Assembly (NCBI RefSeq): GCF_041248615.1
Contig: NZ_CP158426.1
Reading direction: 5' to 3' (one strand)
DNA length: 64,000 bases
From: Escherichia coli
Lineage (GTDB): Bacteria; Pseudomonadota; Gammaproteobacteria; Enterobacterales; Enterobacteriaceae
Shown here: one piece after another, positions 10,492 through 50,510 of the stretch
Layout of the letters: every line of letters starts with the position of its first letter
Position numbering within the stretch: position 1 is the stretch's first letter
Notes under the pieces: generated by a model
Told to the model about the DNA's origin: nothing
What the model saw: only the letters and a program-made list of their open reading frames with translations
Database searches by the model: none
Position numbers and translations under genes: made by a program

Positions 10492-10506
10492 AAAAGCGCC
10501 CGCAGG
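10492..10506. repeat. attL core (direct repeat AAAAGCGCCCGCAGG)
   Basis: identical 15-mer at 50468-50482; GGTACTTA at 10516-10523 mirrors TAAGTACC at 50456-50463. Confidence 0.55.
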
Positions 10507-10592
10507 AGATTTAACGGTACTTACTCCTCTTGCTGATTTCCTTATTTTTCAATAAGTAAACAAAAACAAGGGGAGCAAATTATCACAAATAA

Positions 10593-11588
10593 TTACTGGT
10601 CGATGGACAGTTTATGGACACTTTCAGCCAGCGGATTAAAGCTGATCGCATCCTGTAAAAAGTCCGGTGAAAAATGCGCATACGTCATCGTTTGCTGAAT
10701 CGTGGCGTGACCCAGGATCCTCTGCAACGTGACGATGTTCCCGCCGTTCATCATGAAATGCGTGGCGAACGTGTGCCGCATGACATGCGTGGCCTGCCCT
10801 TTGGGTAAGTCGGGCTTCACCTCCTGAAGGATCTCCCTGAAACTGAGATAATCAACCTGATATAACAGGCCGGTCCGGCGGGTTTTAATTAACGGCACAA
10901 CGGAATCAGCTACAGGAACCGAGCGCGATTTCCCGTTCTTTGTGTTAAAGAACGTCACCCTGTTACCCACGATGTGTTCCCCGCGAAGCGTTGACGCCTC
11001 TTTCCATCTGGCCCCGGTCGAAAGGCACAGAATGGCAATGCGTCGTGCATCACCCTCAAGCCGTTTCAGAAGGCGATCAATCTCGTCATCTGAAAGAAAG
11101 GCCATTTCTGTATTCTGAACCTTGAGTTTACGTATTCCGCGCACAGGGTTTTCGTTATGATAAACCTCCGCGTCAATTAACAACGAAAACATCGCAGATA
11201 AGGCGCACAGGTCGCGATTGATACTGGACGGCATCAGTCCCGCCTGCAACTTATCCGAGCGATACTCAATCACGAATTTTCGTGTCATCTGGCTGGCGCG
11301 CGGGTCCCCCATTTCACGTATCACCTTCTCCAGTCTGGTTCTGTAGGTATCACCATATGCCTGATTACGACCATCAAGCATCCACCACACCTCAATCAGT
11401 TCTGATAACCGCCGTTGATCGGCGGGCCTTGCCTGCCACGGGTTATTGTGGAAATTCTGAAGAACGTATCTTTCGAATTCCTGCGCCTTTGATTTCAGGG
11501 TGAAAATCTTACGAATCCGCCTTCCTCCCGCCCCCTGAGGCCTTACATCAACCTGATAACGTCCGTCTTTGAGTTGCTTAATCGACAT
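10593..11588 (-). CDS. int: P2-type tyrosine integrase
   Basis: 331 aa from ATG with SD GGAGGTG; N-terminus MSIKQLKDGRYQVDVRP and C-terminal HxLRHxFAT...Y catalytic region; resemblance to P2 Int is from memory. Confidence 0.9.
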   Translation of the reverse strand: MSIKQLKDGRYQVDVRPQGAGGRRIRKIFTLKSKAQEFERYVLQNFHNNPWQARPADQRRLSELIEVWWMLDGRNQAYGDTYRTRLEKVIREMGDPRASQMTRKFVIEYRSDKLQAGLMPSSINRDLCALSAMFSLLIDAEVYHNENPVRGIRKLKVQNTEMAFLSDDEIDRLLKRLEGDARRIAILCLSTGARWKEASTLRGEHIVGNRVTFFNTKNGKSRSVPVADSVVPLIKTRRTGLLYQVDYLSFREILQEVKPDLPKGQATHVMRHTFATHFMMNGGNIVTLQRILGHATIQQTMTYAHFSPDFLQDAISFNPLAESVHKLSIDQ

Positions 11589-11657
11589 GATCAGCACCTC
11601 CGACGGATAAACCTGTTAACCCCTGCTTACTGAACGCCGCCCGTTCAATATACAGCG

Positions 11658-24223: not shown

Positions 24224-24625
24224 TTCTATGAAGAATGGCTGGGGCTTCCATCCATGTACTGGGAAGACGATGATGGCGACCTGCACCGCTACGTGGAGAC
24301 AGGCTTGCCATGTAAGACAGCGGCGGATTTTAGTCCTCTTTCAGTCCACAATATCGCATCTGCACCAGACAATATTTTCCGCATGGCCGTGCGAACCTGG
24401 GTTAAGTCATCTGACAGCAGCTACCCGGTAAGCGTGGTTATTGCACTTGAATTATATTCAGTAGATGCGGAACGGGTGTCTCTGAGAGTCCGGGTGGAAG
24501 ACGATATTTCTGTTCGCGTATTTATCAATAAACCCAGCGAAGAAGCCTGGGGCGATGTTGTTATGCACATGAAAAAGCACATCGCTAATCACCTGAAAAA
24601 GCGAGCGCCATCAGCACTTCGTTAA
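24224..24625 (+). pseudogene. 3' part of cargo ORF interrupted by the IS21-family element
   Basis: in-frame continuation of 21535-21636 once IS and one ATTGAT copy are removed; ends 66 bp before gpQ stop. Confidence 0.6.
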
Positions 24626-46759: not shown

Positions 46760-46897
46760 TAATCAGGTTGAGAGGACATCATAAGGCAAGTAGATTAACG
46801 GCAGATACTTTCCCGCAACCACGGGCAAGTATTTAATTATCCATGATGAAATATGACCTAAATTGTTTTTTGCCCGCCGGAAAGCGGGCATTTTTTT
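46760..46897 (+). repeat. repeat unit 1 (partial) ending in bidirectional intrinsic terminator
   Basis: shares GTTGAG...AGTAGATTA...CCATGAT...TTTTGCCCGCCGGAAAGCGGGCATTTTTTT with four downstream units. Confidence 0.55.
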
Positions 46898-47111
46898 ATT
46901 CTTTTGTGGTTATGGGGTCATCAGGAACCACGTGCAGATTATATTTTTGTTTTTTTGGCGTTCCTCCGGCAGCAACGAGTTCATCAATAAGACACTGACA
47001 CGCCTGAACATCCCGGGCATGTCTTAGTTTCACCTTTATTGATTTAACCTTATCCTCACCGGAGGAGAAATGCAGTTCAATCTCAATATCGTTTCTTCGG
47101 AACAATCTCAT
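46896..47111 (-). CDS. small protein of unknown function
   Basis: 71 aa (MRLFRRNDIEIELHF...); two decayed copies downstream; palindrome upstream. Confidence 0.5.
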   Translation of the reverse strand: MRLFRRNDIEIELHFSSGEDKVKSIKVKLRHARDVQACQCLIDELVAAGGTPKKQKYNLHVVPDDPITTKE

Positions 47112-47206
47112 ACGCCCCCTGAATATATCAGAAATACTAGTATCGAAAAATGAGAAAACAGTTAGACAGGAGAAACATATTAACACAAATCATTTATACC
47201 TATAGA

Positions 47207-47222
47207 TGAAATTATAATTTCA
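47207..47222. promoter_or_regulatory. perfect 16-bp palindrome TGAAATTATAATTTCA upstream of the small gene
   Basis: palindromic; related inverted repeats upstream of the two decayed copies. Confidence 0.35.
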
Positions 47223-47331
47223 TTCATGAATATGATAGATAACTATATTGTGAACAAAATGAAAAATGGCTAAATTAAAAATGGGCATGGAGGAATGCCC
47301 GGTTATCAATATAATGTGACGTAGATCATTG

Positions 47332-47562
47332 TTTTGCCCGCCGGAGAGCGGGCATTTTTTTTGCGCCTGCCATCGAGGCGCCTTCCCTGGCGCACACAAA
47401 GCAGCCCTGATTTTCCATGAAAACTTCAGGGTTGAGCTGCGGGCACAAAGTGAGTAGATTAGCTACGGGTACCTCCCCCTGACAACAGGAAGGGTGTCCA
47501 TTATCCATGATATACAAACGAAAAGTCTTGTTTTTTGCCCGCCGAAGCGCGGGCATTTTTTT
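47332..47562 (+). repeat. repeat unit 2, terminator-to-terminator (candidate structured sRNA)
   Basis: bounded by GCCCGCCGGAGAGCGGGC and GCCCGCCGAAGCGCGGGC hairpins with T-runs; internal conserved hairpin CCCTGATTTTCCATGAAAACTTCAGGG. Confidence 0.5.
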
Positions 47563-47688
47563 ATGCATCAGACAAGATACAGCCCACCCCAACTGACACC
47601 TGAAATATTGCCGCAACAAAAAGAAACAGTTAAATTACGCGCGGGTGCCTTTCGGCTGATGGCCGGAGGGAAAACCTGAAGGCCGGAT

Positions 47689-47922
47689 GTGGAAAGGCCC
47701 CGGAAAACATTTCTGTTTAACCGAGGCCCTAACCGCATTACCTTGACAAGTGAAAGGTTAGCGCCTCTCCGGAAAAGGAGCAAGTGCTATGTCGCAAAAA
47801 TCGCTTACGGCCATCACGTTCTGCGTGACGGCAATCCTCATCATCTGGATATTGCACGGTTCGCTGTGCGAAATACGGATGAGCTTCTGGGGAGCGGAGT
47901 TTGCGGCGTTCTTACAATGTAA
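47689..47922 (+). CDS. mok-like overlapping reading frame of hok locus 1
   Basis: 77-codon frame starting upstream of and overlapping hok, as in hok/mok/sok loci. Confidence 0.35.
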   Translation: MERPRKTFLFNRGPNRITLTSERLAPLRKRSKCYVAKIAYGHHVLRDGNPHHLDIARFAVRNTDELLGSGVCGVLTM

Positions 47923-47929
47923 GAAGTAA
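47789..47929 (+). CDS. hok: Hok/Gef-family type I toxin
   Basis: 46 aa MSQKSLTAITFCVTAILIIWILHGSLCEIRMSFWGAEFAAFLQCKK; SD AAGGAG; single TM plus conserved LCE and AAF motifs. Confidence 0.7.
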   Translation: MSQKSLTAITFCVTAILIIWILHGSLCEIRMSFWGAEFAAFLQCKK

Positions 47930-48015
47930 GGAAACCGCGACGGGGGAGCAATCCCCCGTCAATCGGTTGCCAGGGTAAGGTCGATAAGGCACCCTATCTC
48001 ACAGACATGAACAAC

Positions 48016-48050
48016 AAACCCGCAGCATAAAAACTGCGGGTTTTCTTTTT
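48016..48050 (+). terminator. intrinsic terminator of hok locus 1
   Basis: stem CCCGCAG/CTGCGGG followed by TTTTCTTTTT. Confidence 0.5.
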
Positions 48051-48181
48051 GGTGTCCTCACCGACTTGAAACAGTGATCAGACTATAAGACAAAGCCCGC
48101 AATGTTGCGGGCTTACTCTACCTCTCGAAAATGTGGTCACTGCGTGGACATACGCTGATACAAATCCTTTATATCAATAAA

Positions 48182-48280
48182 TTAAATCTTTGTTTTTTTC
48201 ATCAACAATGATTTAACCTTATCCTCACCGGAGGAGAAATGCAGTTCAATCTCAATATCGTTTCTGTGGAACAGCCTCAT
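48182..48280 (-). pseudogene. truncated copy of the 71-aa small gene
   Basis: first 24 codons near-identical to 46896-47111 copy, then diverges to early stop. Confidence 0.45.
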
Positions 48281-48501
48281 AAGACAACCTCCTGAATTCA
48301 TCAGAAACACAGTCAACTGAAAACCAGAAAGCAGACAAACAGTGGACACACATTAATACAAATCATTTATACCTATAGATGAAATTGCAGTTTCATCTAT
48401 AACATGACAGGTAACAATATTGTGAAAAAACTCAAAACTCGTTAGATTAAAGACGGACAGAGCAATGCTACTTTATCAATAACATGTAACCTGTACTTCC
48501 T

Positions 48502-48732
48502 TATTTTGCCCGCCGAAGCACGGGCATTTTTTTTGCGCCTGCCATCGAGGCGCCTTCCCTGGCGCACACAAAGCAGCCCTGATTTTCCATGAAAACTTCA
48601 GGGTTGAGCCAAAAGCACAAAGACAGTAGATTAACCACGGGTGCCTTCCACCTGACAACAGGAAGGGTGTCCAGTATCAATGACAGACAACTCACATTGC
48701 TGTTTTGCCCGCCGGAAAGCGGGCATTTTTTT
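48502..48732 (+). repeat. repeat unit 4, terminator-to-terminator
   Basis: same architecture and sequence family as unit 2. Confidence 0.5.
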
Positions 48733-48734
48733 AT

Positions 48735-48936
48735 TCTTTTGTGGTTATTGGGTCATCAGGAACAACATGCAGATTATGCTTTGATTTTTTTGGTGTTATT
48801 ACAGCAGCAACGAGTTTATTAATAAGACACTGACATGCCTGAACATCCCTGACATATCATAATTTCACTTTATTTTTTTAGCTTGTCCTTTCTGGAGCAG
48901 AAATATCTCAACATCGTTTCTGTGGAACAACCTCAT
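48735..48936 (-). pseudogene. degenerate copy of the 71-aa small gene
   Basis: nucleotide homology to 46896-47111 across its length but reading frame disrupted. Confidence 0.35.
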
Positions 48937-49151
48937 TTGCCCCTGAATGTATCATAAATATCAGCATCGGAAAACCAACAGCAATACAGAAGAAACATGT
49001 TAATGCAAATCACTTATACCTATAGATGAAATTACAGTTTTGTTCATAAATATGATAAGTAACTATATTGTGAATAAAATGAAAACTAGCTAAATTAAAC
49101 GTGGGCATGGTGGAATGCCTCGTAATCAATAATACATGATCCGTACTTCCT

Positions 49152-49380
49152 TGTTTTGCCCGCCGGAAAGCGGGCATTTTTTTGGCGGTTACCATCGCCT
49201 CACCTTCCTGGTTCACATGAAGCAACCCTGATTTTCCATGAAAACTTCAGGGTTGAGACAAAAGCACAAAGACAGTAGATTAACCACGGGTACCTTCCAC
49301 CTGACAACAGGAAGGCTGTCCAGTATCAATGACAGACAACTCACATTGCTGTTTTGCCCGCCGGAAAGCGGGCTTTTTTT
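49152..49380 (+). repeat. repeat unit 6, terminator-to-terminator
   Basis: same family; 5' hairpin region diverged, 3' region conserved. Confidence 0.5.
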
Positions 49381-49582
49381 GGCAGTTATCATAGCCGCAC
49401 CTTCCTGGCACATATGAAGCAACCCTGATTTTCCATGAAAACTTCAGGGTTGAGACAAAAGCACAAAAACAGTAGATTAACCACGGGTGCCTGCCACCTG
49501 ACAACAGGAAGGGGTGTCCATTATCCATGATATACAAACGAAAAGTCTTGTCTTTTGCCCGCCAAAGCGCGGGCATTTTTTT
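49351..49582 (+). repeat. repeat unit 7, terminator-to-terminator (shares a terminator with unit 6)
   Basis: same family; directly upstream of hok locus 2. Confidence 0.5.
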
Positions 49583-49793
49583 ATGCATCAGACAAGATAC
49601 AGCCCACCCCAACTGACACCTGAAATATTGCCGCAACAAAAAGAAACGGATGCCTTTCGGCTGATGGCCGGAGGGAAAACCTGAAGGCCGGATGTGGAAA
49701 GGCCCCGGAAAACATCTGTGTTTAACCGAGGCCTGACCCTTCCTACCGTGACAAGTGGAAGGTTAGCGCCTCTTTGTAAAAGGAGCAAGCGCT

Positions 49794-49934
49794 ATACCGC
49801 AAAAAACGATTATTGTTGGCATTTTATGCCTGACAATAACCCTGGTCATCTGGATGGTCCACGATTCGTTATGTGAATTCAGCTTTGATATCTGGGGAGC
49901 GCGTTTTGCGGCGTTCTTGCAGTGTAAACCGTAA
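49794..49934 (+). pseudogene. hok-like toxin gene copy 2 with ATA in place of ATG
   Basis: encodes IPQKTIIVGILCLTITLVIWMVHDSLCEFSFDIWGARFAAFLQCKP; no canonical in-frame start; mok-like frame 49694-49876 overlaps. Confidence 0.45.
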
Positions 49935-50084
49935 GAAACCGCAGCGGGGGAGAAATTCCCCGCTATCCGGTTGTTGGGGTGGGCCGATATGGCGCCCTTT
50001 CCCTGTAGAGACAAAACAAAAAACCAGATTTGCCCGCCATTGAGAGGGCTTTTTTGTCACCCTCACCAGTGAGGGCATCATCAT

Positions 50085-50312
50085 TCAGAGGCGCGTAAGC
50101 CACCCGGCGTTAACATCCTGCCTGTCAACCCTGGCCGCAGAGTCTGAACGGCAGGTACCGGAAGGAGTACCAAAAACATCCCTGACAAGTTCCGCCACCT
50201 TCCCGATATCATCAGGTGTCACATTCCTCACCTCGGCCGTGATCCGTGGCGTACCATCATCGTTAACAAGAGTGGCTTTAAAGCTGGTGCGAAGGGAAAA
50301 CAACATCAACAT
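50085..50312 (-). CDS. hypothetical 75-aa protein at prophage right end
   Basis: strong SD GGGAGGGG before ATG; no recognisable motif. Confidence 0.5.
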   Translation of the reverse strand: MLMLFSLRTSFKATLVNDDGTPRITAEVRNVTPDDIGKVAELVRDVFGTPSGTCRSDSAARVDRQDVNAGWLTRL

Positions 50313-50423
50313 CCCCTCCCTTTGGTTCGTTGCACTGACGGCACGACACCATCAGGAAAAAGAAAAGCCCACAACGTCAGTATTGTGGACTTTTTTCTTC
50401 AAAGATGGACATTATCTGGACAC

Positions 50424-50450
50424 ATGAAAATAAAATCCATTTATTTTCAT
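50424..50450. promoter_or_regulatory. perfect 11-bp-arm inverted repeat ATGAAAATAAA/TTTATTTTCAT next to attR
   Basis: perfect palindrome, 5-bp spacer, 17 bp from the att core. Confidence 0.35.
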
Positions 50451-50467
50451 ATAGTTAAGTACCATGC

Positions 50468-50482
50468 AAAAGCGCCCGCAGG
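50468..50482. repeat. attR core, overlapping the serS intrinsic terminator
   Basis: identical to 10492-10506; continues into GCGCTTTTT terminator 3' of serS. Confidence 0.55.
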
Positions 50483-50510
50483 CGCTTTTTAGATTCAGAA
50501 AAATTGGGTA

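Follow-up and report, generated by a model that had tools for sequence, protein, structure and literature searches.

The 64,000-nucleotide stretch of Escherichia coli DNA analyzed here (the window) carries a P2-like (Peduoviridae) prophage between dmsA and serS. Its genes follow the P2-type order int-C-cox...D-ogr-cargo-attR, and RefSeq, in its annotation of E. coli ECCNB12-2, which contains an identical stretch, names int, C, cox, replication genes, capsid and tail genes, D, ogr, cargo, and serS. The first of these, labeled 'phage integrase' by RefSeq in the identical prophage and followed by C and cox, encodes a member of the P2 Int family that aligns with P2 Int at 50.6% identity over 99% of its length and with the integrase of phage vB_EcoM-569R5 at 90% identity (both by tblastn). 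Toward the other end of the prophage, ogr is followed by ~3.6 kb of cargo and then by the P arm and serS. The region between ogr and attR holds hok/sok or YafO modules in relatives; in the cargo region of the window, Rfam gave only two sub-threshold sok-like matches, with none in positions 50067-50365. Judged from its sequence, including a 15-bp core at both ends and a serS terminator hairpin remade at attR (Table 1), the prophage is integrated into the serS terminator, and the region described below is the P arm of attR.

Read outward, from phage to host, the P arm consists of a terminator-like hairpin, two TGGACA repeats, a palindrome that overlaps a TCA-N5-TTR IHF-like motif, and the core. 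Each arm of the window carries two TGTGGACA-like direct repeats set one helical turn apart, and the TGGACA repeats of the P arm are conserved in the UTI89 and C311 prophages and in locus L007. An earlier note on this DNA had described a perfect palindrome with 11-bp arms and an N5 loop, 17 bp from the att core and about 120 bp upstream of a 75-aa open reading frame (ORF75). Both the palindrome and the frame, which is on the minus strand, are present (Table 1); the distance from the palindrome end to the core is 17 bp, and the palindrome begins 112 bp upstream of the ORF75 start. The gap between the IHF-like motif and the core is 10 bases. Since the window contains five distinct perfect inverted repeats with arms of 11 bp or more and loops no longer than 10 bp, compared to 0.15 expected from 60 first-order Markov simulations, the palindrome is not a chance feature.

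RNA folding of the terminator-like hairpin gave -19.7 kcal/mol (z -5.6) for the minus strand and -12.4 kcal/mol (z -1.75) for the plus strand, and terminators are annotated at the equivalent place in the P2 and 186 records. One stem position in the window and a different one in L007 pair as G.U in the minus-strand RNA but set A against C in the plus-strand RNA, which suggests that the minus strand is the one on which the hairpin operates.

Table 1 Coordinates of attachment-site, integrase, and ORF75 features within the window.
Feature	Position	Strand	Remarks
attL core copy, 15-bp AAAAGCGCCCGCAGG	10492..10506	.	Longest exact repeat common to both prophage ends
int, P2 Int family	10593..11597	-	3' end faces attL; at the prophage end opposite attR
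P' arm integrase arm-type repeats, TGGACA at 10604 and 10615, 11-bp period	10603..10621	+	Overlap the int 3' end
ORF75, orphan frame of doubtful coding status, 75 aa	50085..50312	-	Better-spaced start ATG at 50306
Shine-Dalgarno-like GGGAGGGG (CCCCTCCC on plus)	50313..50320	-	2 nt from first ATG, 8 nt from second
Rho-independent terminator-like hairpin	50353..50394	-	Stem-loop 50363-50394, U-rich tail to ~50353; pattern scan and RNA folding
P arm integrase arm-type repeats, TGGACA at 50406 and 50417, 11-bp period	50405..50423	+	Match the P2 'Int, P arm' annotation
Perfect palindrome ATGAAAATAAA-ATCCA-TTTATTTTCAT, 11-bp arms	50424..50450	.	Neither arm recurs elsewhere in the window
IHF-consensus-like element TTTCATATAGTTA	50445..50457	+	2 mismatches to WATCARNNNNTTR; overlaps the right palindrome arm
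attR core copy, 15-bp AAAAGCGCCCGCAGG	50468..50482	.	Longest exact repeat common to both prophage ends
serS terminator hairpin, remade at attR from core and host DNA	50468..50490	-	Folds at -15.6 kcal/mol

Correspondence with the annotated P2 attachment site

The GenBank record of P2 (AF063097) lists, in order, ogr, a terminator (24265-24288), the Int P arm (24293-24320), IHF (24324-24357), the core (24356-24383), Cox, the Int P' arm, and int. The sequence labeled 'IHF' in P2, AATAAATCCTTTTATTTCAATTTATTGTACGTAA, belongs to an inverted repeat, GAAATAAA-TCCT-TTTATTTC, which is followed by AATTTATTG, and this whole stretch aligns with ATGAAAATAAA-ATCCA-TTTATTTTCAT-ATAGTTA of the window. The midpoint of the annotated P2 site falls on the right palindrome arm and not on the dyad center, a position that fits a register like that of the lambda H' site.

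The distances between elements also agree. The C|A step of TCA lies 31.5 bp from the second arm repeat in the window, in P2, and in the WPhi class, and the first P' arm repeat lies 131.5 bp beyond that step both in the reconstructed attP of the window and in P2 (153.5 bp in WPhi, a difference of +22 bp). Because the spacing is exact despite ~50% Int identity and unrelated cores, these sites appear to share the same protein-DNA architecture.

Across the window, matches to the IHF consensus WATCARNNNNTTR with at most two mismatches number 787 compared to 728 expected, so a single match is not significant. Relatives have 0-1 mismatches to WATCARNNNNTTR at the same position and the window has two, with the A-tract present in the window. 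Since such matches occur at chance level in the window, the IHF assignment rests on homology to the annotated P2 site and not on the motif.

Distribution of the palindrome module

With no constraint placed on the search, the module turned up in WPhi, P24B2, 12474III, and R18C (all TGATATAAA-TCCA-TTTATATCA), as well as in pro147, Klebsiella phage Kp4861-1, the UTI89 and C311 prophages (at serS), and L007 (a prophage end at copA). A further ~25 P arms from IMG/VR carry it, drawn from a DNA pattern scan that returned 74 loci, about half of which are clear P arms. The IMG/VR P arms are complementary at 8-11 of 12 positions, compared to 4-7 for unrelated chance matches, which served as a built-in negative control. 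An integrase-based search of IMG/VR led to attL junctions and no P arms for most prophage contigs, which end at int.

Among 5426 complete E. coli genomes, the P arm (~100 bp at 80-86% identity) occurs in 356, and the ORF75 segment in only 28. ORF75 is absent beside the P arms of P2, WPhi, pro147, Kp4861-1, and the UTI89 and C311 prophages, and a BLAST search with the ORF and P arm gave no match in the phage or plasmid collection. Locus L007 is the one diverged relative that bears the ORF: its ORF, terminator hairpin, and arm repeats are ~92% identical to those of the window, but the similarity stops just past the arm repeats, and the palindrome, IHF motif, and core have been replaced together. 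Because L007 keeps the ORF while its palindrome and core have been swapped as a unit, we conclude that the palindrome travels with the att specificity module and not with ORF75. Co-occurrence or co-evolution of the dyad with ORF75 was also considered and was set aside on these genome counts and the L007 swap.

Coding status of ORF75

The strong Shine-Dalgarno sequence attributed to ORF75 is present, but its spacing favors a start other than the one assumed for the 75-aa frame: only 2 nt separate the end of GGAGG from the first ATG, whereas a second in-frame ATG (50306-50304) is 8 nt away. If real, ORF75 most likely starts at this second ATG and encodes 73 aa, as gene callers and the database entry P0001 have it. 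The frame alone is not above chance, because the six frames of the window contain 219 ORFs of at least 73 aa, 19 of them with a strong Shine-Dalgarno sequence near the start.

The earlier note had seen no recognizable motif in the frame. Searches of Pfam, PHROGs, and NCBIfam placed ORF75 in no family and returned nothing usable; the nearest matches were DUF6346 (E 0.097) and a PHROG with no assigned function (E 0.16). The homology search that had been proposed for its product, carried out as a word-indexed search of 5.8 billion proteins, found four near-identical clusters, all from E. coli. Two of these (P0003 and P0004) are frameshifted versions; we do not take the frameshifts as evidence of decay, since the source assemblies have fragmented serS genes too and the frameshifts are probably sequencing errors. 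An exhaustive HMMER search added only P0005 and P0006, giant proteins with very low E-values in which, by pairwise comparison, a 20-27-residue motif, LLNPDGTPKRTTEINSLTPN, is matched 21 times; these were rejected as a repeat-summing artefact.

ORF75 and its L007 variant differ at 16 nucleotides, distributed 6/4/6 by codon position (dN/dS ~0.55); at the low power of this comparison, coding constraint is not evident. GC content is flat across the codon positions of ORF75 (GC1/GC2/GC3 of 0.57/0.51/0.55), compared to GC2 values of 0.38-0.43 for int, gpD, and serS. AlphaFold2 run on the single sequence gave a mean pLDDT of 54 and no confident fold, and RefSeq annotates ORF75 in one of the 25 genomes listed.

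Complementarity of the palindrome arms

The sequence of the palindrome arms differs between classes of P arm, and the two arms of each class are complementary variants of one another: GAAATAAA/TTTATTTC, GATATAAA/TTTATATC, GAAACAAA/TTTGTTTC, GAAGAAAA/TTTTCTTC, and, in L007, CTGATTAA..../....TTAATCAG. Among 30 distinct P arms, 79% of cells were paired, compared to 36-50% when partners were slid by 1-3 columns; for this comparison a 1-nt register was set by hand in three classes, and L007 was left out of the pair count, MAFFT having misplaced it by one column. The covariation score for the same 30 P arms was 0.249, compared to 0.05-0.115 for the slid controls and with 0 of 500 shuffles as high, though the rows are related by descent and only ~4-5 independent compensatory events stand behind the counts. 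The inner eight pairs were Watson-Crick in 229 of 240 cells, the two innermost of these pairs being imposed by the search pattern.

Discussion

We consider it likely that the palindrome is an IHF bend site in the attR P arm of this P2-like prophage and that ORF75 is not under its control. The earlier note had offered two readings of the palindrome, an operator for ORF75 or an arm site for integrase or an accessory factor; our data favor the latter, given homology in both sequence and position to the annotated IHF region of P2, and speak against the former. The corresponding P2 site is assigned a role in integration and excision through DNA bending by IHF. In the window, IHF bound at the palindrome and TCA-N5-TTA would introduce a sharp bend, allowing Int bound to the arm repeats to reach the core in integration and excision. 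The left palindrome arm would serve as the A-tract and the right arm as a T-rich segment between the two IHF kinks: the TCC(A) center would supply the 3-4 bp ahead of the first kink, and the right arm the 9-bp inter-kink segment that ends in the C|A kink, with TTR following four bases on. The terminator hairpin most likely stops minus-strand transcription of the C-int operon through attP in the circular phage, and in the prophage it would stop read-through from serS. For ORF75, the most likely reading is a frame that arose by chance or lacks a function, probably unexpressed, within a cargo segment of ~250-300 bp.

It is extremely improbable that the palindrome is instead an operator for a dimeric regulator of an ORF75 promoter. 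A perfect dyad upstream of ORF75 and on the same side is consistent with such an operator, but the minus-strand terminator (50363-50394) and the integrase arm repeats intervene, and a promoter scan covering sigma-70-type consensus sites found no sigma-70-like promoter in the intervening minus-strand DNA. Moreover, the module occurs in many phages that lack ORF75, as the gap between the two genome counts shows, and L007 keeps the ORF with a different palindrome and core. We also think it unlikely that this prophage lineage carries, in ORF75, a true orphan cargo gene of small size (a moron). A strong Shine-Dalgarno sequence 8 nt from an ATG, prediction by some pipelines, a location in the same ogr-attR cargo region that carries hok/sok or YafO modules in relatives, and the intact frame, Shine-Dalgarno sequence, and well-spaced ATG in L007 (92% identical, with 7% DNA divergence) all speak for a gene. 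Against it stand the lack of a family, a confident fold, or homologues past near-identical copies, substitutions without codon-position bias, flat GC by codon position, a terminator immediately upstream with no promoter detected, and the absence of annotation in 24 of the 25 RefSeq genomes listed. The gene status implied by the earlier note is not supported.

The putative IHF site leaves one feature of the palindrome to be accounted for: IHF recognition is asymmetric, and compensatory complementarity of the arms across the family is not explained by IHF binding alone. One tentative possibility is that the symmetry is a mutational by-product, in which template switching, an established E. coli mutational mechanism at quasi-palindromes, copies changes between the arms and generates covariation without selection. 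The covariation data fit this account, as do intermediates changed in a single arm (L112, L116, L134, and Kp4861-1), but it does not explain why the palindrome persists at an exact position across integrases that are ~50% identical. The dyad symmetry might itself be functional at the DNA level, through a second symmetric protein, IHF able to bind both ways round, or a small cruciform that forms in supercoiled attP and helps the intasome assemble, and pairing and covariation above the slid controls, with arms that are class-specific yet complementary, point in this direction. We nevertheless judge this improbable, given the few independent events, the hand-set register, and the pattern-imposed inner pairs, the mismatches tolerated by Kp4861-1 and L113, and the centering of the annotated P2 IHF site on the right arm and not on the dyad. 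Very unlikely, in our assessment, is an RNA hairpin in the 3' untranslated tail of the C-int transcript that would be made in the unintegrated phage only and would modulate int by analogy with lambda sib (summarized in PMC2951348). In the reconstructed attP the palindrome lies distal to int, beyond the core, so that integration would uncouple it from int, and the predicted hairpin folds at -11.7 kcal/mol on the minus strand (z -4.95) compared to -7.4 kcal/mol on the plus strand. Where the inner stem has a single mismatch, it reads as G.U on the minus strand in four lineages and on the plus strand in one, but this 4:1 split is not significant (binomial P ~0.19), and the stem of 8-14 mostly A-U pairs is short for an RNase III target and falls short of a long sib-type duplex. 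A broader proposal, that all P2-type att sites conserve the TCC-centered dyad as a co-varying module whose symmetry is required (for a cruciform, a second symmetric factor, or a pre-integration int mRNA hairpin), seems to us doubtful. No earlier description of a required dyad symmetry was found in a check of literature other than the primary P2 att-site papers.

A putative IHF bend site of this kind is a known element (the P2-type IHF arm site), and only the compensatory upkeep of the dyad is mildly new, raising a small question on how these intasomes are built. Our analysis provides a base-level attachment-site map for a common class of E. coli prophage, found at serS in ~6.5% of complete genomes. 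Its value is mainly for annotation: a tempting pair of small gene and operator is better described as a recombination arm beside an unsupported reading frame. The spacing, identical to that of P2 despite 50% integrase divergence and an unrelated core, is also a useful constraint for engineering P2-type integrases.

Comparison with known attachment systems

The left arm of the phage 186 attP (NC_001317) resembles the window in placing a lysogenic-operon terminator and an IHF footprint between its arm-type sites and core, and the equivalent arm in the 186 record is labeled 'predicted terminator of lysogenic operon'. It differs in its arm-type consensus (YAYCGCCAYTY), its tRNA-gene target, and a GC-rich hairpin in place of the A/T palindrome. 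The TCC-centered palindrome is absent from the 186-type attPs of 186, EtG, and MHG54, and their arm repeats differ too.

The palindrome region has the layout of the lambda H' site, whose crystal structure in complex with IHF was reportedly determined by Rice et al. in 1996. Like the palindrome region, H' comprises an A-tract, 3-4 bp, a kink, 9 bp, a C|A kink in WATCAA, NNNN, and TTR, and the P2 motif TTTCAATTTATTG agrees with TATCAATTTGTTG of H' at 10 of 13 positions. Lambda differs from the window in having another integrase family with other arm sites and in carrying H' in its P' arm, and the A-tract and inter-kink segment of H' are not complementary to each other.

Among prophages at the same target, the one at serS in UTI89 is PhiECO5, located at 911187-948481 (Nilsson et al. 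2011, PMC3448106). It shares with the window integration beside serS, a P arm of ~84% identity, and the palindrome core AAAATAAAATCCATTTATTTT. Its palindrome has T..A as the outermost pair (A..T in the window) and a mismatch at the third position, and PhiECO5, unlike the window, lacks the ORF75 segment and has just one hok locus in its ogr-attR interval.

For P2 itself, an IHF site in the P arm of attP is attributed to Yu & Haggard-Ljungquist (1993), as cited in PMC4111918. The two systems differ in their targets (locI for P2, the serS terminator for the window) and cores, in the length of the palindrome arms (8 bp in P2, 11 bp in the window) and the loop between them (TCCT in P2, ATCCA in the window), and in the IHF motif, which is TTTCAATTTATTG in P2 and the weaker TTTCATATAGTTA in the window. 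Whereas ogr abuts the P arm in P2, ~3.6 kb of cargo lies in between in the window. P2 nevertheless has, like the window, a terminator, two TGGAC-type repeats with an 11-bp period, a TCC-centered A/T palindrome, TCA-N5-TTR, and the core, and its P' arm Int site carries TGGACA twice, as does that of the window.

Terminators as probable integrase targets

The hairpin beside the P arm (the right prophage end, attR) scored -19.7 kcal/mol on the minus strand versus -12.4 kcal/mol on the plus strand, the minus strand being by far the better terminator. In both the window and L007, the ORF75-bearing relative at copA, the stem has a position that reads G.U on the minus strand but A.C on the plus strand, and its place differs between the two. 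On the circular phage, this predicted terminator probably marks the end of the C-int operon; in the lysogen, it probably stops read-through from serS.

Rho-independent terminators seem to be the target of this integrase clade. Prophages with related integrases (54-62% identical; attL junctions L056, L061, L066, L073 and L084-L093) all lie at a GC-rich hairpin followed by a T run at host-gene 3' ends, and the core-type sites could come from the symmetry of the terminators themselves. In the reconstructed attP, the core is flanked by an 8-bp inverted repeat (TAAGTACC...GGTACTTA, 28-bp gap) centred roughly on the serS terminator loop; this repeat could be part of integrase core-type recognition.

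E. coli SCU-115 (L171; NZ_CP054368.1, 2855168-2855759) has a 99.3% identical copy of this right prophage end, with both ORF75 and the palindrome intact, and there the host DNA at the junction (AAAAGCGCCCGCAGG|TGCCTTTTTT) lies beside zapB rather than serS. The zapB junction is a secondary attachment site, and it too has a terminator-like appearance.

The ORF75 segment and neighboring cargo

Compared with the prophages at serS in UTI89 (L003) and C311 (L004), the window contains ~250 extra bases that correspond exactly to ORF75, the 75-aa orphan reading frame, plus its Shine-Dalgarno sequence, immediately past which similarity resumes at TTTGGTTC. In this comparison, the segment behaves as a discrete insertion. 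A weak promoter-like site (TTGTCA-16-CATCAT) points into it, with a terminator-like hairpin ~300 nt beyond; a non-coding RNA antisense to ORF75, arising from these plus-strand elements, is conceivable. The ogr-attR cargo is built as a mosaic of repeats (70-230 bp, 2-4 copies each) and includes two sok/hok-like loci and several repeated terminator-like units.

Features at the prophage ends
Feature	Position	Strand	Remark
ogr-attR cargo	46800-50066		
sok/hok-like locus 1	47643-47956		Hok intact, 46 aa
sok/hok-like locus 2	49648-49961		degenerate
Promoter-like site	50054-50081	+	weak
ORF75 segment	50067-50320		
Predicted terminator hairpin	50363-50394		
Terminator-like hairpin	50369-50388	+	
Inverted repeat around core	50456-50463 and 10516-10523		

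P-arm-like modules and arm-type sites in other phages

One viral contig (L114, IMGVR_UViG_3300036791_001914) carries two unlike P-arm-like modules, one of WPhi type and one of P2 type, which could derive from tandem or chimeric P2-like elements. In 186-type attPs (phage 186 itself, L096, 1890-1935; L173; L175), two inverted arm-type sites surround AAAAAATCC, in the arrangement GTGGCGGT-AAAAAATCC-ACCGCCAT. The central AAAAAATCC resembles AAATCC, which forms the middle of the P2-type palindrome (the A/T dyad at the inferred IHF site), a likeness that may be coincidence.
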